DNA of 64,000 nt, from positions 17,887 through 81,886 of the forward strand of contig JAHFIQ010000001.1 in assembly GCA_023246355.1 (NCBI GenBank), written 5' to 3'. Positions within the stretch are counted from its first letter, which is position 1; each line of letters starts with the position of its first letter. The position numbers were made by a program, and so were the translations under genes. The notes under the pieces are model-generated. The model was not told the DNA's origin. It worked only from the letters and a program-made list of their open reading frames with translations, and did no database searches. This stretch comes from Candidatus Uhrbacteria bacterium (GTDB taxonomy: Bacteria > Patescibacteriota > Patescibacteriia > UBA9934 > GWF2-40-263). This document shows positions 9,966-63,033 of the stretch, piece after piece.

Positions 9966-10027
9966 CTTGACGGCCGTGCTTTTTTGTGCGATCGTGTGGC
10001 TGGTCATCCAGACCATCCGGAGTTGCG

Positions 10028-10831
10028 ATGAAACGTTCTCTCAACGGCGAAGAACTTCTTTGGGTCAGTTCAGCGGTCACCGCGCATCGAGCCTCATTGC
10101 GTGGTGAGCGACTCATCTCCTTGCGCACGCGCGTGAGTGAAGCGAAACGCACAGCCTTCTTCAACCTCTGTAGTCTCGCCGGTGGAATCGCGTGTGGCTT
10201 CCTGCTCTACATCAAACCCCACCAGATCCTGACCATGGGCCAGGCTGGAGAGTTGATCTTCATCTTCCTGTTCATGGGAGCCCTCGTAGCCTGCCTGTAC
10301 TCCCCGTTCTTCCTGATCGGGAGCCTCAACACGCTGTACAGGCATGCGGGGATCGTCTCCAAGCACGAGGGGCAGAATCGTCTCCCGGACGAGGAACACG
10401 AGGCCAACAACGCCCTCGGCCATCTGGCAATGATCGCCCACGAAAACGCCCTGTTCGTACAGCTGTGTCGTTGGCGATGGGAGGTCTACGAATCTCTTCG
10501 CGACAGCGGACAGATCGATCCTCACCCTGGAGGAGACGAAATCGAGGCACTGCTCGAACAGGCAGAGCACGAAATCAGTGAGGAGTTGAACGCGGTCAAT
10601 GGACTTCTACTCAGGCACAAGTACATGGACAAATCCGAGCTGGAACTGACCATCGAGAGAATCCTGTGGCGACCGAATCTCTTTGCCATCGGCAAGCGAC
10701 TCAGTCGAATGGCTGCTCTCGACCTGGACACGTTCCACCAGAAGATCGTGAAGGTGAACAGCTACAAGATCGAGGAAGATCCTCGGATCGGAGAGCTCGG
10801 CCACCTCTTGGAAACGCGCCTCGCCGCCTGA
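10028..10831 (+). CDS. hypothetical membrane protein
   Basis: ORF with two hydrophobic helices near the N-terminus; the start choice (MKRSLNGEEL) is uncertain. Confidence 0.45.
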   Translation: MKRSLNGEELLWVSSAVTAHRASLRGERLISLRTRVSEAKRTAFFNLCSLAGGIACGFLLYIKPHQILTMGQAGELIFIFLFMGALVACLYSPFFLIGSLNTLYRHAGIVSKHEGQNRLPDEEHEANNALGHLAMIAHENALFVQLCRWRWEVYESLRDSGQIDPHPGGDEIEALLEQAEHEISEELNAVNGLLLRHKYMDKSELELTIERILWRPNLFAIGKRLSRMAALDLDTFHQKIVKVNSYKIEEDPRIGELGHLLETRLAA

Positions 10832-11102
10832 CCTCTACGACTCACCCGCCCGCTCTCTCGAGCCTCGGCGGTTTTCTTTTTTCCACAGCCTTCGCGTTGA
10901 CAGAAACAGCACATTGTGATGAAATAGAAATACAGGTGAGGCATGTGCCTCCACATCCTGGTGTCAAATAAATCCCCCCAATTCAAAGGCCAAATGGTTT
11001 TTGATGTAGGGGGATTTTATTTTCCCCTGGATCAGGAAAACAGTGAGGACAACAAGTTCTGCCTAAAAATATTTATCAATTTCAACTCATGCACAAGAAG
11101 AC

Positions 11103-11129
11103 GGTAACAAGTTTTCGCAGGTGCGAAAA
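11103..11129 (+). repeat. 27-nt direct repeat copy 1 (GGTAACAAGTTTTCGCAGGTGCGAAAA) carrying the 18-nt palindrome TTTTCGCA-GG-TGCGAAAA
   Basis: 26/27 identical to the copy at 11673; read directly from the sequence. Confidence 0.8.
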
Positions 11130-11164
11130 AAGACTCCCCATCACCAACGCAACAATCGACAGTT

Positions 11165-11677
11165 ATGTACAGATCGCAGGAGCTAACTCATTTCCTACAA
11201 CTACTGGAAGAATCTGCTTTAGAGGCAAGCGAAATGTTCAGATTGTGGGCAAGTAGGCGTCCCTATCGTCGTGACCCTGAGGATCAATTAGCCGAGGAAC
11301 GACTGGAACAACGGCGAGCATTTCAGAAAAAAACAAAATATCTCCGCAGAAAAAAATTGATTCTCGCAAGGAAAACGGAAGCGGGATTGCTCTATGAGTT
11401 GACAGACGAAGGACGAACTGAAATTCTCAACAGATTAGTAAGAGAGAGATCGACTCTTCCCAACGGGGAAGTTTGTCTTGTTGTCTACGATGTTCCTGTT
11501 GAGGCAAGCCTCGGTAGAGACGCGTTGAGGTACTTTCTTAAACGGATAGGACTGACACGGGTACAGCAGAGCATCTGGCAGACGGATAAGGATGTCGTCT
11601 CAGAGGTTGTTGAATTTGTACGATCGGCAAAAATTCAAAAATGGGTTGAGGTCTATTATGCTAGGAAACAGGGGTAA
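11165..11677 (+). CDS. winged-HTH + Cas2-like (VapD/Cas2 fold) fusion protein, probable DNA-binding regulator
   Basis: 170 aa. The N-terminal half has a wHTH pattern (KLILARKTEAGLLYELTDEGR). The C-terminal segment LVVYDVPVE..GRDALRYFLKRIGLTRVQQSIW matches the Cas2 core motif (lvvYDv....R.klrk.l..yG.rvQ.Svf). Confidence 0.6.
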   Translation: MYRSQELTHFLQLLEESALEASEMFRLWASRRPYRRDPEDQLAEERLEQRRAFQKKTKYLRRKKLILARKTEAGLLYELTDEGRTEILNRLVRERSTLPNGEVCLVVYDVPVEASLGRDALRYFLKRIGLTRVQQSIWQTDKDVVSEVVEFVRSAKIQKWVEVYYARKQG

Positions 11678-11699
11678 CAAGTTTTCGCAGGTACGAAAA
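11673..11699 (+). repeat. 27-nt direct repeat copy 2 (GGTAACAAGTTTTCGCAGGTACGAAAA)
   Basis: Overlaps the stop codon of 11165..11677 and lies between convergent genes. Confidence 0.8.
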
Positions 11700-11810
11700 C
11701 TCGTTCCCACCGTAAGTCACGTGAACATTCGGTAAAAAATTCCAGATTTGTATCGGTGAATAAATGTTCCTGGCTTATGCCTGCCCCTTCGACTTGGCTG
11801 GGATCAGCTT

Positions 11811-12878
11811 CTAAGGAGCAATGGCGATGTTCTCTTCACTCCCCACGACTTCAATCCAGGTCACGCCTGCGTTCATCACGACCTCCTCACCGCTCACGCG
11901 GTCATAAAATTTCAATCGTTCACTTGCAGACGGCTTTCTCCAAGTTGCCTCGATCGCCTGTCCATCTTGAAACACATAGCCATCCCCTTCTCCCGTTGTC
12001 CGCACAGCTCGACGACCCACGCTGTCCAATATATCAATGTCTGTCATCACAACCGCCACGTTGTCTGCTGTAATCTGCGAACCCGTACTTGTCAGATGTG
12101 GCTCACCTGACTGCGAACGGACATACAAACCGAGTTCCGTGTCGTAACTCCAATCCGCAAAATAGATCGTTCCGTCAAAATCAACATGCAGACTCGACTC
12201 GCTCTTTGAGGGTTCTGGATCCTTAAACAACCACACATCGTAAAGTCTCTCAGGAACAACTCCCGCTTCTGTGCGCCGCGTCACAAACTCGTTCATGAGC
12301 GTTGTGGAAGTGAAGACGTTGTGTGGCGCAAAGCGATTCCCTGCCCGCCAAAAATACTCTCCCCACCAATATTGGTTAAAATCAAATGTGCCGCCAGAGG
12401 CAATCAAGTCGAGCGCGGCATTCGATCCTCCGACATGGACGTACAGGGCATCAAGTTCATTCGCCCAGTCCAGATAATACGGTCGAGCAGAGCGCACAGG
12501 ACCAATTTCTGCCACGTCTTCTTCAGAGGAAAAAAACGCGAGCAAACGAGGAATGGCTGCTTCCACTGGCGCCTCGATGACTAAAAACGCTTGGTCGATG
12601 CCAGACGGTGGCCAGGCATCTTCGTGGTTGTCGATCATAACCGCGAACACCTGAGGAAGTTCGACAAGAGGTGCGTAGATCGAAGCTCCAGTGAGTGGGT
12701 GTCGATACACAGCGTCAGAGGTTGTCTCTTGTTCGTCTGTTGGCTCTGGCGAAGATCGATAGACAAATTTAGGAAGAACAAGTGCCACCAGAATTGCCAA
12801 CCCCACCACAATAAGAAGACCGACCAACGTGAGCCGGTCGGTTTTCTTCAAGCGTTTGATGGCCTCCTTGAATCGCAT
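11811..12878 (-). CDS. DUF3048-like exported protein (YerB-like)
   Basis: Start set at the internal Met (MRFKEAIKRL..., signal/anchor helix), 1 nt after the rplY stop; 355 aa. Confidence 0.55.
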   Translation of the reverse strand: MRFKEAIKRLKKTDRLTLVGLLIVVGLAILVALVLPKFVYRSSPEPTDEQETTSDAVYRHPLTGASIYAPLVELPQVFAVMIDNHEDAWPPSGIDQAFLVIEAPVEAAIPRLLAFFSSEEDVAEIGPVRSARPYYLDWANELDALYVHVGGSNAALDLIASGGTFDFNQYWWGEYFWRAGNRFAPHNVFTSTTLMNEFVTRRTEAGVVPERLYDVWLFKDPEPSKSESSLHVDFDGTIYFADWSYDTELGLYVRSQSGEPHLTSTGSQITADNVAVVMTDIDILDSVGRRAVRTTGEGDGYVFQDGQAIEATWRKPSASERLKFYDRVSGEEVVMNAGVTWIEVVGSEENIAIAP

Positions 12879-18297: not shown

Positions 18298-18300
18298 GAA

Positions 18301-18328
18301 GGCGGGGCTTGACCCCGTCTTTGTTTTG
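18301..18328 (+). terminator. rho-independent terminator of gyrB
   Basis: GGCGGGG-CTTGA-CCCCGTC hairpin followed by TTTGTTTT. Confidence 0.6.
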
Positions 18329-18329
18329 A

Positions 18330-20160
18330 GGTAGAAAGCTTTGCCGAACGCGAGGTGTCGAGTTCGTCCTGAACGAATGATTCCCTGTTCGGCTCCTGAG
18401 TGACGAATCTGGTAGTGCTACAAAACGAATGAACAAGTGTCACTCTTCACTCGACGAGAGGTTCCATGTCGACCCAGTTCGACGAGGTCGACCTTGTCGA
18501 GTTCCAGTCTGACGTGGGTAGAAGTGCCTCATGGCGCTGCAATGTCTGTCAGACTTTATCAGGCGAACAACACGATGCCTTTACAGGCGTAGATCGCGGT
18601 GCCTGATTCTGTTGTGCGAGAAGTAGTTTGGCTTCGCGCCGTACCTCGGTATGCACGACTCCGATCGGACGAATCAACGGCTGTCTTCCAGCGACTTGCC
18701 CTCTGTCCGATCCAAGCTCGACGTAGCTTAGACTGTACAAAACGATCCAAGCGTTGTCGAGCAAACTGTGGACGTGTGCCTGGTTGTTTCCTACGAAGGC
18801 GTTCCTGTCCACTCAACTGCTGTACGATCCCGTGCCTGTCGAAAGACGAACCCACCGATGTACAGCACCGTCTGACGTCTATCGTGCTGACCGAGGTCGA
18901 CCAAGCCGATGTCAGACTCCCTATCGGACGACTACTACCTTGTCGAAAGACGGAGAAGAGTATGTCCAAATCTGTCGTGCGAATCCTTCGATGACCCTTG
19001 AGTCGAATCGGTCGTTGCACGACTCTTGCTGGACGATTGAACAGCTGCCTAATAGCGAGACATCGCGTGTCCAGCTTCCCGTGAACGATCACCGCAGTGC
19101 CTTCATGGCGAATGATCATGTGTTCAACACCGCTGCGCGAGTCAAGGTGTGTTGAAAGACGACTCCATGTCTGCGCAGCAACTCGAGTGACAAGCGATGG
19201 ACTGTTGAAAAACGATTCACCACGTGTCACTGACCCCATCGGGCGAAAGATGCAGTGGCGAGAGCCGCCGTGTGCTGTGCCTGATTGCAAGTGGACGAGA
19301 ACTACACTGCCCCTGGCTATCTGGCAGGTGTCAAGCCTCACTCGACGCAGGGCGACATGTCCAAACCCATCATTGAGATCAACTCGACTAGGATGGGCAA
19401 AGACGAAGTTCATGATGTCGAGTTTCCGTTGTGCGATCATCCGAATGACTTCGGTCGAAGCTACACTTGCACAACTCATGAGTGACGTATGAACGGCTGT
19501 TGAAAAACGCGTTGGCTAGTGTCACTCCTCCGCCCTTGGCTTCGGCCTTGGGTGTTTTATTTTGAACGACGTACTTGTGACCATATGGTCGAGAGTTCGT
19601 CACGTTCCAAATAGAGCGAAACATTGACATCTGTCCTCTTTCGGCGTAGTCATGAGGAGTCGGGCGTAGGAGATGTTGTTGAAAGACGACTGGTAGATGC
19701 CCGATTCTGCTGGACGATTTCGAGACTGCCATCTGGCGATCGTTGTGGTGTCCGGCTCCTGATGGACGAAGGTAGTCATGTCTTCGGACGATACTACACC
19801 TGTCCTTTTCCAGCTCGACGAATCATCCAGTGTTCACGGACGTGACGTACATTGTCGAGCCAACTCGTGGACGTGTGCCTGGTTGTTTCCAACGAAGGCG
19901 TTCCTGTCCGGTCTTGCCGAGCGAGGAGTAGCGTGTCGAAAGACGTAGGTCCATTTGCTCGGCCATCGAGTGAAGATTCGACTGATGTCGAAAGATGTTC
20001 CAGGGGATGTCACTCACTCCTTCGACGACCAGCCACGTGTCGCAAGACGATAGGCAAGGTGTCGAACAACTATCGGGCGAATCACGGACTGTCTCCGGAC
20101 GTCTGTAGAAGTGCCCGATTTCCAACCCTTGTCCCTTGGACGACCCAAGGGATTTTCTTT
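18330..20160. repeat. ORF-free ~1.8 kb region dense in degenerate short repeats centred on GACGA (TCGAAAGACGA / TGGACGA / TCGGACGA) and 43-60-nt diverged long repeats
   Basis: About 20 GACGA plus ~6 GACGT in 1.9 kb, against ~2 expected by chance. GUC-GAAA-GAC hairpins are frequent. 18768-18810 matches 19867-19909 at 42/43 nt, and the extended repeat is ~60 nt. The region is TA-depleted and CpG-rich, and no ORF has protein-like composition. Confidence 0.7.
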
Positions 20161-20296
20161 TTCTCTTAACCTAGCCAAAACGACGTAACCGGGTAACGAC
20201 TTTCATTGACACCAACGGAAGTTCCATGCTAGTTTGCGCCGTTGCTTTTCGAGCAACAAAACCCAAAGCCGACGGGCTCAAAACGTAGGTACCCAG

Positions 20297-30762: not shown

Positions 30763-31268
30763 ATTCGATAGTGCAGCAACACACTCTGTTCATTGAGCTT
30801 GGTCACTTCGATCAAGCTCATTTGAATTCGATCAAACCCTTGGGCAAGTGGAATGCCGCTGCCAAACAAAATCGGCTCGATCGTGAGATACATGTCTGTC
30901 ACAAGTCCTGCTTGGAGAAACTGGCTATACACCGATGAACCACCACCAATGACAAGCTGGGTTACACCTTCTGATGCAAGATCCTGAACGAGATCTTTTG
31001 GATTTTGGTTTCTGAACTCCACCTCACCACCTTTTCCACCTAATCCACCTTTTCCACCCGTCTCACTGAGCACAATCAGCCTCCTTCCCTTCAGCGGCTT
31101 GCCAATGGTCTCAAACGTCCGGCGACCCATCACGACCACACCTGCTTCTTTTGTTTTGGCCACAAAAAAAGCCGTGTCTTCTTTTGACGTCCAATCAAGC
31201 GAACGTTGATTGGGAGACTGTGCAATCTTTCCGTCTGCGGAAATCGCGGCCACGAGAATCACCTTCAT
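30759..31268 (-). CDS. folA: dihydrofolate reductase family protein (DHFR/RibD_C-like) with in-frame GGKGGLGGKGG insertion
   Basis: MKVILVAAISADGKIA...VMGRRTFETIG...LIVLS; overlaps the thyA stop. The insertion is encoded by a TCCACCT 9-nt repeat. Confidence 0.7.
   Translation of the reverse strand: MKVILVAAISADGKIAQSPNQRSLDWTSKEDTAFFVAKTKEAGVVVMGRRTFETIGKPLKGRRLIVLSETGGKGGLGGKGGEVEFRNQNPKDLVQDLASEGVTQLVIGGGSSVYSQFLQAGLVTDMYLTIEPILFGSGIPLAQGFDRIQMSLIEVTKLNEQSVLLHYRI
31022..31059. repeat. TCCACCT micro-array, locus C, inserted in-frame inside folA
   Basis: caccaccttttccacctaatccaccttttccaccc on the plus strand encodes GGKGGLGGKGG on the minus strand. Confidence 0.7.
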
Positions 31269-43608: not shown

Positions 43609-43758
43609 TAACTTCTTGGAAAGAAAAATTCTGGTCGAATGGTCTGCCTGCCCGCCATCGGCCTGCGCCTCAGGCGCTGGCAGGCGGGGCGAGCCCCACA
43701 GAATGTTTGCGTGGGGTCGGACAGACCTGAGACCAGAATTTTTCTTTCCAAGAAGTTA
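43609..43758. repeat. palindromic intergenic element copy 1 (28-bp perfect inverted arms + conserved 48-nt core)
   Basis: Arms TAACTTCTTGGAAAGAAAAATTCTGGTC / GACCAGAATTTTTCTTTCCAAGAAGTTA. Core ...GGCGAGCCCCACAGAATGTTTGCGTGGGGTCGGACAGACCTGA. The right arm ends on the dnaE stop codon. Confidence 0.8.
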
Positions 43759-56759: not shown

Positions 56760-56855
56760 AGGTGGAATAGGTGGACAAGGTAGACAAGGTGATCCCCGAC
56801 TCCGAACTCCGAGCACCTTTTCCACCACATCCACCTTCCCACCTCTTCCACCTTC
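56760..56855. repeat. TCCACCT micro-array, locus D (AGGTGGA arm then CCACCT x4 ending 3 nt before the clpC ATG)
   Basis: aggtggaataggtggacaaggtagacaaggtga ... ttttccaccacatccaccttcccacctcttccacctt. Confidence 0.75.
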
Positions 56856-56858
56856 CTT

Positions 56859-59351
56859 ATGCCTCAGGACATCGTCGACAAATTTTCTTCCCACTTGAAA
56901 AACGTCCTCACTCGAGCGCTGTGTTTGGTTGTGGAAACAGATCAGAAAGCCATCCACCCAGAACATCTCTTGTGGGCTATGGGAACACAAAAAGGCTGTA
57001 TCGGCGCAGAGATTCTAAAAAAATCTGGAGTGAAGCTCGTGGAGCTGAAAAAATTGGCCGGTGTGAGACAGGTCGTTCATCCACTGACAGCTGGCAGTGA
57101 TCTCTCCCTCCATCTTTCACAAGACGCCAAACGCATGGTGGAAAAAGCGGTACTCACGGCCAACATGTATGGCCACCGCTATGTAGGAACGGAACATTTG
57201 CTCTCGGGCATCCTTCAAATTGAAAGCCCGACCACACAACAATTTTTCCATGAGCAGAACACGGACATGAAAGAGCTGCGTTCACAACTCGCGATCGTTC
57301 TCAAAAGCACCTCCCGATTTCCAGATCTCACCGAAGCTCCCAAAGGCGGACAAGCAGTTGTGGCACAACCTGGCGCCCAGACAAAAGAGACAGGACAACC
57401 ACAAGAGAAAAAAATTTCCGCGGTGGAATATTTTAGTGTGGAACTCACCACAAAGGAAGCTCAGAAACGGATCGATCCGGTGATTGGTCGCGACAGGGAG
57501 ATAGAACGACTCATGGAAATTTTGTGCCGTCGCACAAAAAACAATCCTCTCCTGCAAGGTGAACCAGGCGTTGGCAAAACAGCGATCGTCGAGGGTCTTG
57601 CCAAAAAAATCACGCAAGGGGATGTCCCGCCCGTCCTGGCTCACAAACGCATTTTTGCTCTCGACATGGCGCTCGTGGTCGCTGGCACCATGTACCGAGG
57701 CGAATTCGAAGGACGACTCCGCCAAATCGTTGATGAAGTTAAACAAGACCCTGAGATGATTTTATTTATCGACGAAATTCACTCCATCGTCGGTGCGGGT
57801 TCTGCCTCAGGCTCTCTGGACGCGGCGAATATTTTGAAGCCGGCCCTTGCGCGCGGCGAAATTCGTTGCATCGGTGCCACCACGCCTGGAGAGTTCAAAA
57901 AATACATCGAAAGCGACAGTGCTCTGGAGAGACGATTCCAATCGGTCTATGTCGAAGAACCCAGCCGTGAAAAAACCATTGAGATCCTCGAAGGCGTGGC
58001 TCCCCACTTTGAACAGTTTCATCGTGTACGAATTTCTCACGAAGCCATTCGCGAGGCAGTGAATCTCTCCGAACGCTACATCCAAGATCGCCAGCTCCCA
58101 GACAAGGCGATTGATCTGATCGACGAAGCCGCTGCTGCCACGCGTGTCCGCGATACCCATCCCGCTCCGTTACAAAAAGAACGCGCCCTCTTTGATGCCC
58201 TCGACCAGGTCAAAGAACTCAAACGCCAGGCGGTCGTGGAAGAACGATTCTTCGAGGCCATGGAACTCAAAGCCCAGGAGGACCGCACCCAAGCCCATTT
58301 GGCCTCGTTGCGCATTGAAGAGGATACGTCTCCCATCCCTGTGATCACCGAGCAGGACATTGCTCGCGTTGTTTCACGTGCCACGGGTATTCCACTGGAT
58401 GGAATCTTGGAACAGGACTTGAGCGAGCTCATGCGCCTTGAAGATAAGATGCGTGCTTCCGTGCTTGGCCAAGACGAAGCGCTGAGCATCGTTGCTGGAG
58501 CCCTGCGACGAGCCAAAGCTGGCATGGCTCATCCCAAACGCCCGCTCGCATCGTTTTTGTTCTTGGGACCTTCCGGTGTCGGAAAAACAGAACTGGCCAA
58601 AACCGTTGCCGACCTGTTGTTCCACTCCAAAAATAATTTCATCAGACTGGACATGTCCGAGTACTCAGAAGCCTTCACGATGTCCAAACTCATCGGCGCC
58701 CCGGCTGGATACATCGGATACAAAGAAACATCAAACCTCACCGATCGTGTGAAGCAACGACCCTACTCCGTTGTGCTTTTTGATGAAATCGAAAAAGCCC
58801 ATCGCGATGTGCAGAACCTGCTTTTGCAAATCCTCGAGGAAGGTGAACTCGCCGACGCCACGGGTCGCACGGTCAATTTCAAAAATACGGTAATTATCTT
58901 AACCAGCAATGTCGGACTTGAGCGCTTTGAACAAGGCGAGATGGGATTCATGGGAAGCGATGGCGATCGCACCATCACCCTCAACGCTGATCTCCAAAAA
59001 GAACTCGCTGAGCGCTTTCGCCCGGAACTCTTAAATCGTCTGGACCACACTTGCGTGTTCAAACTTCTCACACCAGAGACACTCACAGCCATTGCCAACA
59101 AACAACTTGAGGAACTCGTGAGCCGCCTCAAAGAACAAGGCCTCACACTCACCATCCACGAGAGCGTCGCCGCCCACCTCGCCAAACAGGCCGATGCAAA
59201 ATCCGGCGCCCGCCAGTTGAGATCCCTCATCCAAAAAGACATTGAACACAAAATTGCGGAACAATTGAGCCAGAAACATCGACCTCGAGCGTTTAACATT
59301 AAACTCAAAAACAAAAACATCGTCGTCACAAAAAACTATGCCAACACGTGA
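56859..59351 (+). CDS. clpC: ATP-dependent Clp protease ATP-binding subunit ClpC-like (class I Clp/Hsp100)
   Basis: Clp_N repeats and two AAA+ modules ([15 protein letters not shown]; [12 protein letters not shown]), with a short M-domain. Confidence 0.85.
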
Positions 59352-62927: not shown

Positions 62928-63033
62928 TTCTTCTTCAAAAGTTATTTTTTTGTCGAAAGGGCTGGCGAGCCCCACAGAATGTTTGTGTGGGGTCGGACAG
63001 ACCTGAGACGAAAAAATAACTTTTGAAGAAGAA
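62928..63033. repeat. palindromic intergenic element copy 3 (27-bp near-perfect arms + conserved core)
   Basis: Arms TTCTTCTTCAAAAGTTATTTTTTTGTC / GACGAAAAAATAACTTTTGAAGAAGAA. Core GGCTGGCGAGCCCCACAGAATGTTTGTGTGGGGTCGGACAGACCTGA. Fills the spacer 62927-63041. Confidence 0.8.

Follow-up and report, generated by a model that had tools for sequence, protein, structure and literature searches.

A gene framed by two palindromic repeats

The stretch analyzed here, referred to as the window, is 64 kb of DNA from an uncultured groundwater bacterium of the Candidate Phyla Radiation (CPR; Candidatus Uhrbacteria), and it is this DNA that was searched. It carries a gene that lies between two direct copies of a 27-nt sequence, GGTAACAAGTTTTCGCAGGT(G/A)CGAAAA (copy 1 in full, GGTAACAAGTTTTCGCAGGTGCGAAAA). 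The copies, at 11103-11129 and 11673-11699 and both on the + strand, are identical at 26 of 27 positions and start 570 nt apart, as an earlier reading of this DNA (the original prediction) had reported. No third copy was found in the window at up to three mismatches, and none of 100 dinucleotide shuffles of the window produced two matches to the 27-mer; a chance repeat is ruled out by these shuffles together with the comparison with 92 control genes given below. A palindrome had been claimed for each copy. It is perfect in copy 1 (8+2+8, TTTTCGCA-GG-TGCGAAAA; Table 1), and in copy 2 a G>A change disrupts one inner pair, though there the palindrome reaches further out, with arms of ~15/16 nt that make up a 37-nt imperfect palindrome (GGGTAACAAGTTTTCG-CAGGTA-CGAAAACTCGTTCCC). 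The sole long open reading frame (ORF) between the copies encodes 170 amino acids. Its ATG follows the end of copy 1 by 35 nt and its TAA stop (11675-11677) falls within copy 2, again in agreement with the earlier reading.

Table 1. Features of the repeat-framed gene and its upstream context (positions in the window).
Feature	Position	Strand	Description or basis
Upstream element U (27-nt copy 1)	11103..11129	+	left outer box GGTAAC; inner palindrome 11112-11129; right outer box degenerate
Degenerate right arm and lost ancestral start	11130..11164	+	reads GACTCCCCATCAC; relatives GTCCGC-AT-ATG
Coding sequence of the 170-aa winged helix-turn-helix + Cas2-like 'mini-PaaX'	11165..11677	+	ORF list, Pfam, homologues, AlphaFold2 model
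N-terminal part of the coding sequence	11165..11443	+	long basic helix ending YLRRKK, then beta-hairpin wing
C-terminal Cas2-like ferredoxin-fold domain (aa 104-168)	11474..11668	+	D109, R118, R122, Q134, S136, W138 kept
Downstream element D	11672..11708	.	27-nt copy 2 (11673-11699) within the 37-nt imperfect palindrome; TAA is part of the left outer box
Context element S (promoter-like box and ~95-nt hairpin/terminator)	10870..11034	+	comparison of relatives, RNA folding

By its domain architecture the gene encodes a two-domain 'mini-PaaX' transcription factor, which bears out the earlier assignment of a PaaX-like winged helix-turn-helix (wHTH) joined to a Cas2-like domain. Pfam PF20803 (PaaX_M, 'PaaX central Cas2-like domain') scores 37.8 bits over amino acids 104-168 (cut-off 24, E 2.1e-9) and is matched by all 33 aligned relatives. 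The AlphaFold2 model (predicted local distance difference test score, pLDDT, 81) has three helices and a beta-wing at amino acids 1-93, the N-terminal winged-helix DNA-binding domain of the PaaX family, followed by a beta-alpha-beta-beta-alpha-beta domain. Its best structural match in the PDB is Escherichia coli PaaX (8a39), with Cas2 and VapD next; the resemblance to VapD is a fold-level match to 3ui3. The Cas2 family proper is approached less closely: PF09827 does not match the window protein and gives weak matches in 11 of 33 relatives, and the NCBIfam cas2 model TIGR01573 scores 21.3 bits, just under its cut-off of 24.5. A profile search with the family reaches solved Cas2 proteins (3exc, E 1e-4).

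The PaaX_C effector domain (PF08223) is absent from the window protein, which ends at amino acid 170 directly after the Cas2-like domain, and is carried by one of 47 homologues; Pfam also gave no match to PF07848. With PaaX_C, PF07848 and paa neighbours all missing, the protein is not a PaaX orthologue. Homologues originate from Candidatus Uhrbacteria and other Patescibacteria metagenome-assembled genomes (MAGs). A profile search of 1.84 billion representatives returned 5,726 clusters (50% identity), among which 3,924 score at E<=1e-10, and because most of the matched clusters are 160-220 amino acids long, the short two-domain form constitutes a large family. Public assemblies call a 147-amino-acid version of the window protein that starts at M24 (P0001).

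Two functional contexts were set aside. A CRISPR mini-array or cas context is ruled out, as the original prediction had held, since the 64 kb contain no repeat family of the CRISPR array type and the housekeeping neighbours are not cas genes: no cas1 or other cas gene was found among the 10 neighbouring ORFs scanned against Pfam, nor in the DUF3048 gene. A toxin or abortive-infection role, which had also been suggested, found no support. PADLOC returns only Cas2 models for the window protein, the ORF list shows no small partner ORF (a cognate antitoxin), and neither the palindrome nor the protein family is present in the viral contigs searched, which rules out a phage link.

Start and stop palindromes across the family

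For comparison, 19 distinct loci were collected: 10 genome contigs (one re-fetched as L022/L023), three metagenome contigs (one duplicating a genome locus), six loci found through exact protein look-up, and the window. To score the similarity of the two ends of a gene, the 70 start-proximal nt were compared with the 80 stop-proximal nt and the highest 18-mer identity was taken. All 16 family loci scored in this way, with proteins 30%-73% identical to the window protein, reached 16-18 of 18, against a maximum of 14 in 92 control genes of the same sequences. In every Uhrbacteria locus a palindrome of 30-40 bp stands just before the start codon (U) and is repeated at or just past the stop codon (D). 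The letters of the palindrome differ from locus to locus, and distant relatives carry wholly different palindromes in the same arrangement. The palindrome of L020 (30% identity) reads AGTATACTAAACTGACGG|CCGTCAGTTTAGTATACT, and that of L021 GCATAACTTTTTCACGA|TCGTGAAAAAGTTATGC; the proteins of these two loci are 30-43% identical to the window protein, and both retain the pair with palindromes unrelated to that of the window. Three loci were judged by eye, outside the 18-mer scoring. L013 (28% identity) keeps a clear pair (...TACGCTATAGCGTA... between ACAATATT arms), L030 reads TTGACTAT...ATAGTCAA, with D beginning right past the stop codon and the locus then cut by the contig end, and the reading of L029 is ambiguous. 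Framing by U and D is thus a trait of the family and specific to it.

Within a locus the two elements belong together. The mean identity of U to its own D is 0.81 over 36 nt as opposed to 0.57 to the D elements of other loci, in 12 of 15 loci U finds its closest match in its own D, and paralogues within one MAG carry different palindrome centres. Between orthologous loci, U-U identity is 0.75-0.97 and D-D identity 0.64-0.86, while the adjoining 40 nt are mostly at 0.10-0.47 (the exception is 0.88 upstream of U for L007/L008). No further copies of any of the 18-nt cores were found at up to four mismatches, in any locus or in the window. A match to the generic motif at 56876 lies inside the 5' coding region of an 830-amino-acid ORF and was dismissed as a regulon site. 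On the two points that the original prediction had named as decisive, profile similarity of the protein is present, and in the sequence that was available the 27-mer does not recur as a genome-wide repeat.

The likeness of U and D might also reflect common descent, with U a plain promoter region and D a plain terminator, both read by the host machinery or another factor, and with the similarity left by a duplicated palindrome-gene unit and occasional gene conversion. D does keep the 'GTCCGCAT' tail of U without the ATG, as a tandem-duplication remnant would, the D copy of L017 directly precedes the ATG of the next gene, and the left outer box (GTGACA) looks like a -35 element. We regard this explanation as very improbable. 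The palindrome letters change completely in distant members yet stay paired with the gene, which is unexpected for a generic promoter and terminator; none of the 92 neighbouring genes shows U/D similarity; and, on the sequence comparison, both U and D are under purifying selection, the 6-nt centre included.

Two loci of the collection depart from the usual arrangement on the downstream side. At L012:3001-3460 (metagenome Ga0075999_119) a cassette of group B carries a natural deletion that has removed the last ~30 codons and the whole of D, with U and the upstream tRNA-Lys intact. At L017/L018:3516-3566 (47% identity to the window protein) an ATG follows D at the same offset as in U and opens the next gene, which encodes a BNR/PSII_BNR protein; at this locus D may serve a target gene as promoter-operator.

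When centred on their dyads, the elements align as an outer box G[GT][AG]AC, an A/T-rich linker, an inner box TTTCG, a 6-nt centre, CGAAA, a second linker and GTCC(GC), with the composite spacing GGACA-N22-TGTCC. In 10 of the 15 aligned loci the distance from the U dyad to the ATG, on its 3' side, is exactly 21 nt. The window U aligns in register with the U elements of the 14 other loci, and its start codon is an exception, at centre+45: the right outer box is disrupted (GACTCCCC in place of GTCCGC), CATCAC stands where the ancestral sequence is CATATG, and a usable start first occurs 23 nt beyond the ancestral position, there being no in-frame ATG, GTG or TTG between 11108 and 11164. As a result of this displacement the window protein is without the ~10-residue basic N-terminal tail of its orthologues. 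No Shine-Dalgarno-like motif was found in 11130-11164; such cores stand upstream of only 3 of the 42 long ORFs of the window, which indicates that translation initiation in this genome is mostly independent of them. At the other end, the stop codon (TGA, TAA or TAG) sits in the left outer box of D in six loci (the window, L007-L010 and L021) and up to ~25 nt upstream of D in the remaining ones. In L007, L008 and L010 the inner core and centre of D are inverted relative to U, with the outer arms unchanged.

The pattern of symmetry bears on whether the palindromes act as DNA or as RNA. Counted outward from the dyad, complementarity of the arms averages ~90% over positions 2-7 (range 83-100%), is 80-87% at positions 13-14 and drops to ~45% at positions 9-12, so that each half-site consists of two conserved blocks and there is no continuous stem. 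Transition-type mismatches are balanced overall (G:T 21, A:C 21), with A:C 12 against G:T 4 in the U copies, a bias against wobble pairing on the + strand, and G:T 9 against A:C 4 in the D copies, whose symmetry exceeds that of U. This pattern fits protein contacts on DNA rather than a stem. At 9 of 15 loci, six or more of the 14 nt in the tail of D are T (two in the window), and the higher symmetry, G:T excess and T-rich tails of D suggest that it may often serve additionally as a terminator hairpin. The window D folds with -16.3 kcal/mol on the + strand (z -3.0) and -25.2 kcal/mol on the - strand (z -6.5), and the U of L003 with -29.3 kcal/mol (z -9.8).

Good folding of this kind, the G:T excess and T-rich tails of D, the rank of Cas2 and VapD as next-best structural matches and the conservation of the Cas2 hallmark residues would all suit palindromes that fold as RNA hairpins at either end of the mRNA and are bound or cut by the Cas2/VapD-fold domain, which has an RNase fold, in a post-transcriptional autoregulation or a toxin-like activity. 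We consider this unlikely, given that pairing is lost at positions 9-12, that the wobble bias of U is opposite to that expected, and that the orientation of the loop or centre flips between U and D. U moreover lies directly against the ATG, a place at which initiation would be blocked by a stable stem, and PaaX_M is a dimerization module in a bona fide DNA-binding repressor. A known RNA family for the palindromes is ruled out by Rfam, which returned no family at the gathering threshold across the whole window and none at E<=1 for 10800-11850.

Neighbouring genes and the question of mobility

The genes around the framed gene encode QueA, RF-1, an NTP-transferase, PrmC, an unknown ORF, DUF3048, L25, RodA and GyrB, and the neighbours in other loci are equally unrelated to phenylacetate catabolism. 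The original prediction placed the gene in an AT-rich island between convergent housekeeping genes. GC content is indeed 0.44-0.47 over 10850-11900 as opposed to 0.52-0.59 in the flanks, but part of this island is the separate conserved element S (Table 1). The upstream gene is not a convergent housekeeping gene either. It is an ORF of 281 amino acids (9986-10831), between PrmC and S and on the same strand as the regulator gene, with no Pfam match; tblastn found no homologue in the relatives' loci examined, the sole match (L014) being the window's own locus from another sample. By this comparison it is a lineage-specific insertion in the variable gap between PrmC and DUF3048. In relatives these two genes are direct convergent neighbours, with a gap of 26 nt in L028, of 316 nt with a tRNA-Leu(TAA) in L026, and with other inserts in L027, which makes both the 281-amino-acid ORF and the block from ~11035 to ~11810 specific to the lineage of the window.

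The empty sites L026 and L028 contain no solo palindrome. Homology of the window with L026 stops at ~11035 and restarts at ~11810, and neither point coincides with the repeats. Target-site duplication, or palindromes as insertion junctions, was rejected on account of the empty sites, and the suggestion in the original prediction that the repeats are the boundaries of a small mobile cassette is not supported. In the related MAG JACRJW (L026:5060-5210), the space between PrmC and DUF3048 is taken by the tRNA-Leu(TAA), in whose place the window has the cassette (11035-11810); ARAGORN found no tRNA gene in the 64 kb.

Element S has counterparts at L026:5211-5371 (- strand), L002:2649-2770 and L001 ~2725-2890. 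It comprises a promoter-like TTGACA-N17-TGAAAT, a conserved TTTTCCACAG motif and a ~95-nt structure that ends in a long hairpin and a T-run. The RNA has a minimum free energy of -41.8 kcal/mol in the window (z -4.0), with seven pairs showing compensatory changes over four sequences and no match in Rfam, and we consider S a putative, unannotated small RNA (sRNA)-like element. S lies ahead of the tRNA-Leu(TAA) in L026; in the window, and in L001 and L002 with the closest homologous cassettes, it lies ahead of the cassette. The simplest history would be replacement of S-tRNA-Leu by S-cassette via recombination in S, a passive relocation rather than a transposition at the palindromes.

The family occupies at least four chromosomal contexts and has two paralogues per MAG in three MAGs. 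These facts, together with the position of the window copy in the variable PrmC-DUF3048 gap, group-B copies that adjoin tRNA-Lys, a GC content below that of the flanks and the inverted D core of L007, L008 and L010, would be expected if recombination took place at the palindromes, or if they marked the ends of a small cassette able to relocate (of the attC or REP, repetitive extragenic palindromic, type), with the gene in a non-autonomous mobile unit. We nevertheless find this distinctly unlikely. To the empty sites without a solo palindrome and the homology breaks away from the repeats can be added that no locus has third or solo copies, that orthologous positions are stable among species whose proteins are 55-75% identical, that no recombinase or transposase was found near the loci examined, and that viral contigs hold no relatives; relocation is better explained through recombination in the shared upstream S.

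Further repeats were noted elsewhere in the window. A stretch of ~1.9 kb past gyrB (18300-20170) has no convincing ORF and contains three copies of a 47-nt element with the palindromic ends GAGTGAC-N33-GTCACT (18398, 19185 and 19480), along with a 43-nt repeat that is 98% identical between 18768 and 19867; no Rfam family matches. A 68-nt direct repeat with 87% identity and a hairpin CCCCACA...TGTGGGG occurs at 43688-43755 and 62964-63031, both times intergenic beside a gene start, and could be a shared leader or regulatory RNA. Short degenerate intergenic repeats, often just upstream of genes, lie at 22064-22128, 26681-26783, 31020-31062 and 56760-56848, and read ACCTTTTCCACCTATTCCACC, or AGGTGGAATAGG on the complementary strand.

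A putative autorepressor and its relation to known systems

On balance, we think it probable that the palindromes are the cognate operators of an autoregulated mini-PaaX. The winged helix would bind DNA and the Cas2-like domain would act as the dimerization module, as in PaaX, with the two repeats as composite operators of the protein (outer box, inner TTTCG, A/T-rich linker and 6-nt centre). U covers what would be the promoter and start region of its own gene, and the ATG exactly 21 nt from the dyad in most relatives suggests that occupancy of U would repress the gene in a negative autoregulation. The same protein would bind D as its second site, and in many loci D would double as a terminator hairpin; it may strengthen or sharpen autoregulation, through a U-D loop or a roadblock at the 3' end near the stop codon, and may insulate the gene from neighbouring, convergent transcription. 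Autoregulatory operators had been proposed in the original prediction, and the comparison strongly backs reading the palindromes as putative operators, with U and D kept and co-varying with the gene in nearly every relative. From the sequences we infer the encoded protein as the binder, repression by it, and the role of D.

Several observations weigh against this interpretation. The palindromes could be bound by a factor other than the encoded protein, whose retained Cas2 hallmark residues make a nuclease activity possible, and the contribution of D has the status of a proposal. The spacing between U and D (561-677 bp across loci) shows no helical phasing when computed from the coordinates. 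In the window itself, the right arm of U is degenerate and the start codon is displaced. The position of the promoter within U is presumed: a canonical -10 box is not visible in most U elements, and TAnnnT boxes stand 4-12 nt before the ATG in 6 of 42 long ORFs as opposed to 6.8 expected from shuffles. A generally leaderless genome was accordingly rejected as an argument, since such boxes are not above the shuffle expectation. A promoter scan of 10700-12000 found no sigma-70 consensus. The search for regulon sites covered ~64 kb of the genome, and when co-variation between recognition helix and operator was examined, the set contained few distinct types.

A more far-reaching version of the autorepressor interpretation, which we consider unlikely, would make palindrome-gene-palindrome a self-contained regulatory cassette typical of the CPR, in which a Cas2-fold/wHTH protein recognizes palindromes of CRISPR-repeat size that frame its own gene. 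The copy at the stop codon would then actively control formation of the 3' end, by stalling RNA polymerase ahead of the stop as a roadblock or through a U-D loop, or D would make the unit a relocatable, self-insulating (selfish) module. If true, the architecture would be new, whether autoregulatory or mobile, and would go beyond a PaaX-like repressor with an extra site.

The short wHTH + Cas2-like proteins form a very large uncharacterized family, and its members with source names here come from CPR/Patescibacteria assemblies. To our knowledge, almost no transcription factor with a known site has been described from these bacteria. The framing rule (one palindrome at start and stop) would allow the cognate site of each family member to be read from sequence, and would make protein-DNA specificity and autoregulation in uncultured bacteria directly testable. 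The family is also a case of the Cas2 fold employed outside CRISPR, and should D control 3'-end formation or looping, the regulatory design would be unusual.

One of the closest known systems is PaaX, the phenylacetyl-CoA-responsive repressor of E. coli and Pseudomonas (PDB 8a39, 3l09). Both proteins have an N-terminal wHTH followed by the Cas2-like PaaX_M, and PaaX is the best structural match of the window protein. PaaX represses its own promoter; the operator that it binds is a long palindrome, TGATTC-N27-GAATCA (PMC9493321), whose half-sites lie far apart and which is similar in scale to the GGACA-N22-TGTCC of this family. The window protein differs in lacking PaaX_C and a PF07848 match, in having no paa genes nearby and in its CPR host, and a second operator on the stop codon is a feature of the window family that is not described for PaaX. 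From CRISPR Cas2 it is set apart by a score under the cas2 cut-off, by fusion to a wHTH and by scanned DNA without an array or cas1, and the 'spacer' between the repeats is the protein's own 543-nt gene body. From VapD it differs in its wHTH, in the lack of a VapX-like partner and in PADLOC matches to Cas2 models only.

Single genes between palindromic repeats are also known from REPtrons (RAYT, REP-associated tyrosine transposase, with REP) and attC cassettes. Unlike a REPtron, the window protein is wHTH + Cas2-like and no HUH transposase, and its repeats are not dispersed (two copies in 64 kb); in contrast to both systems, the repeats are direct rather than inverted copies and the empty site is without a copy. 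The elements are ~36 nt long as against 57-141 nt for attC, with GACA/TTTCG boxes instead of RYYYAAC/GTTRRRY, and come without R''/R' cores, integrase or array. Paired sites are also known from the auxiliary-operator looping repressors (lac O1/O2, gal OE/OI and deo), whose operator likewise comes in two copies: the promoter carries one, and a second lies within or beyond the coding region, hundreds of bp further downstream. The pair described here differs in that it encloses the gene of its own regulator, exactly from start to stop, in the great majority of the family members examined, and looping and tetramerization are conjecture. The full-text literature on PaaX with Cas2-like, Patescibacteria or CPR yielded no description of this arrangement, and what appears to be new is a putative PaaX-type autorepressor with a conserved, self-framing operator pair.

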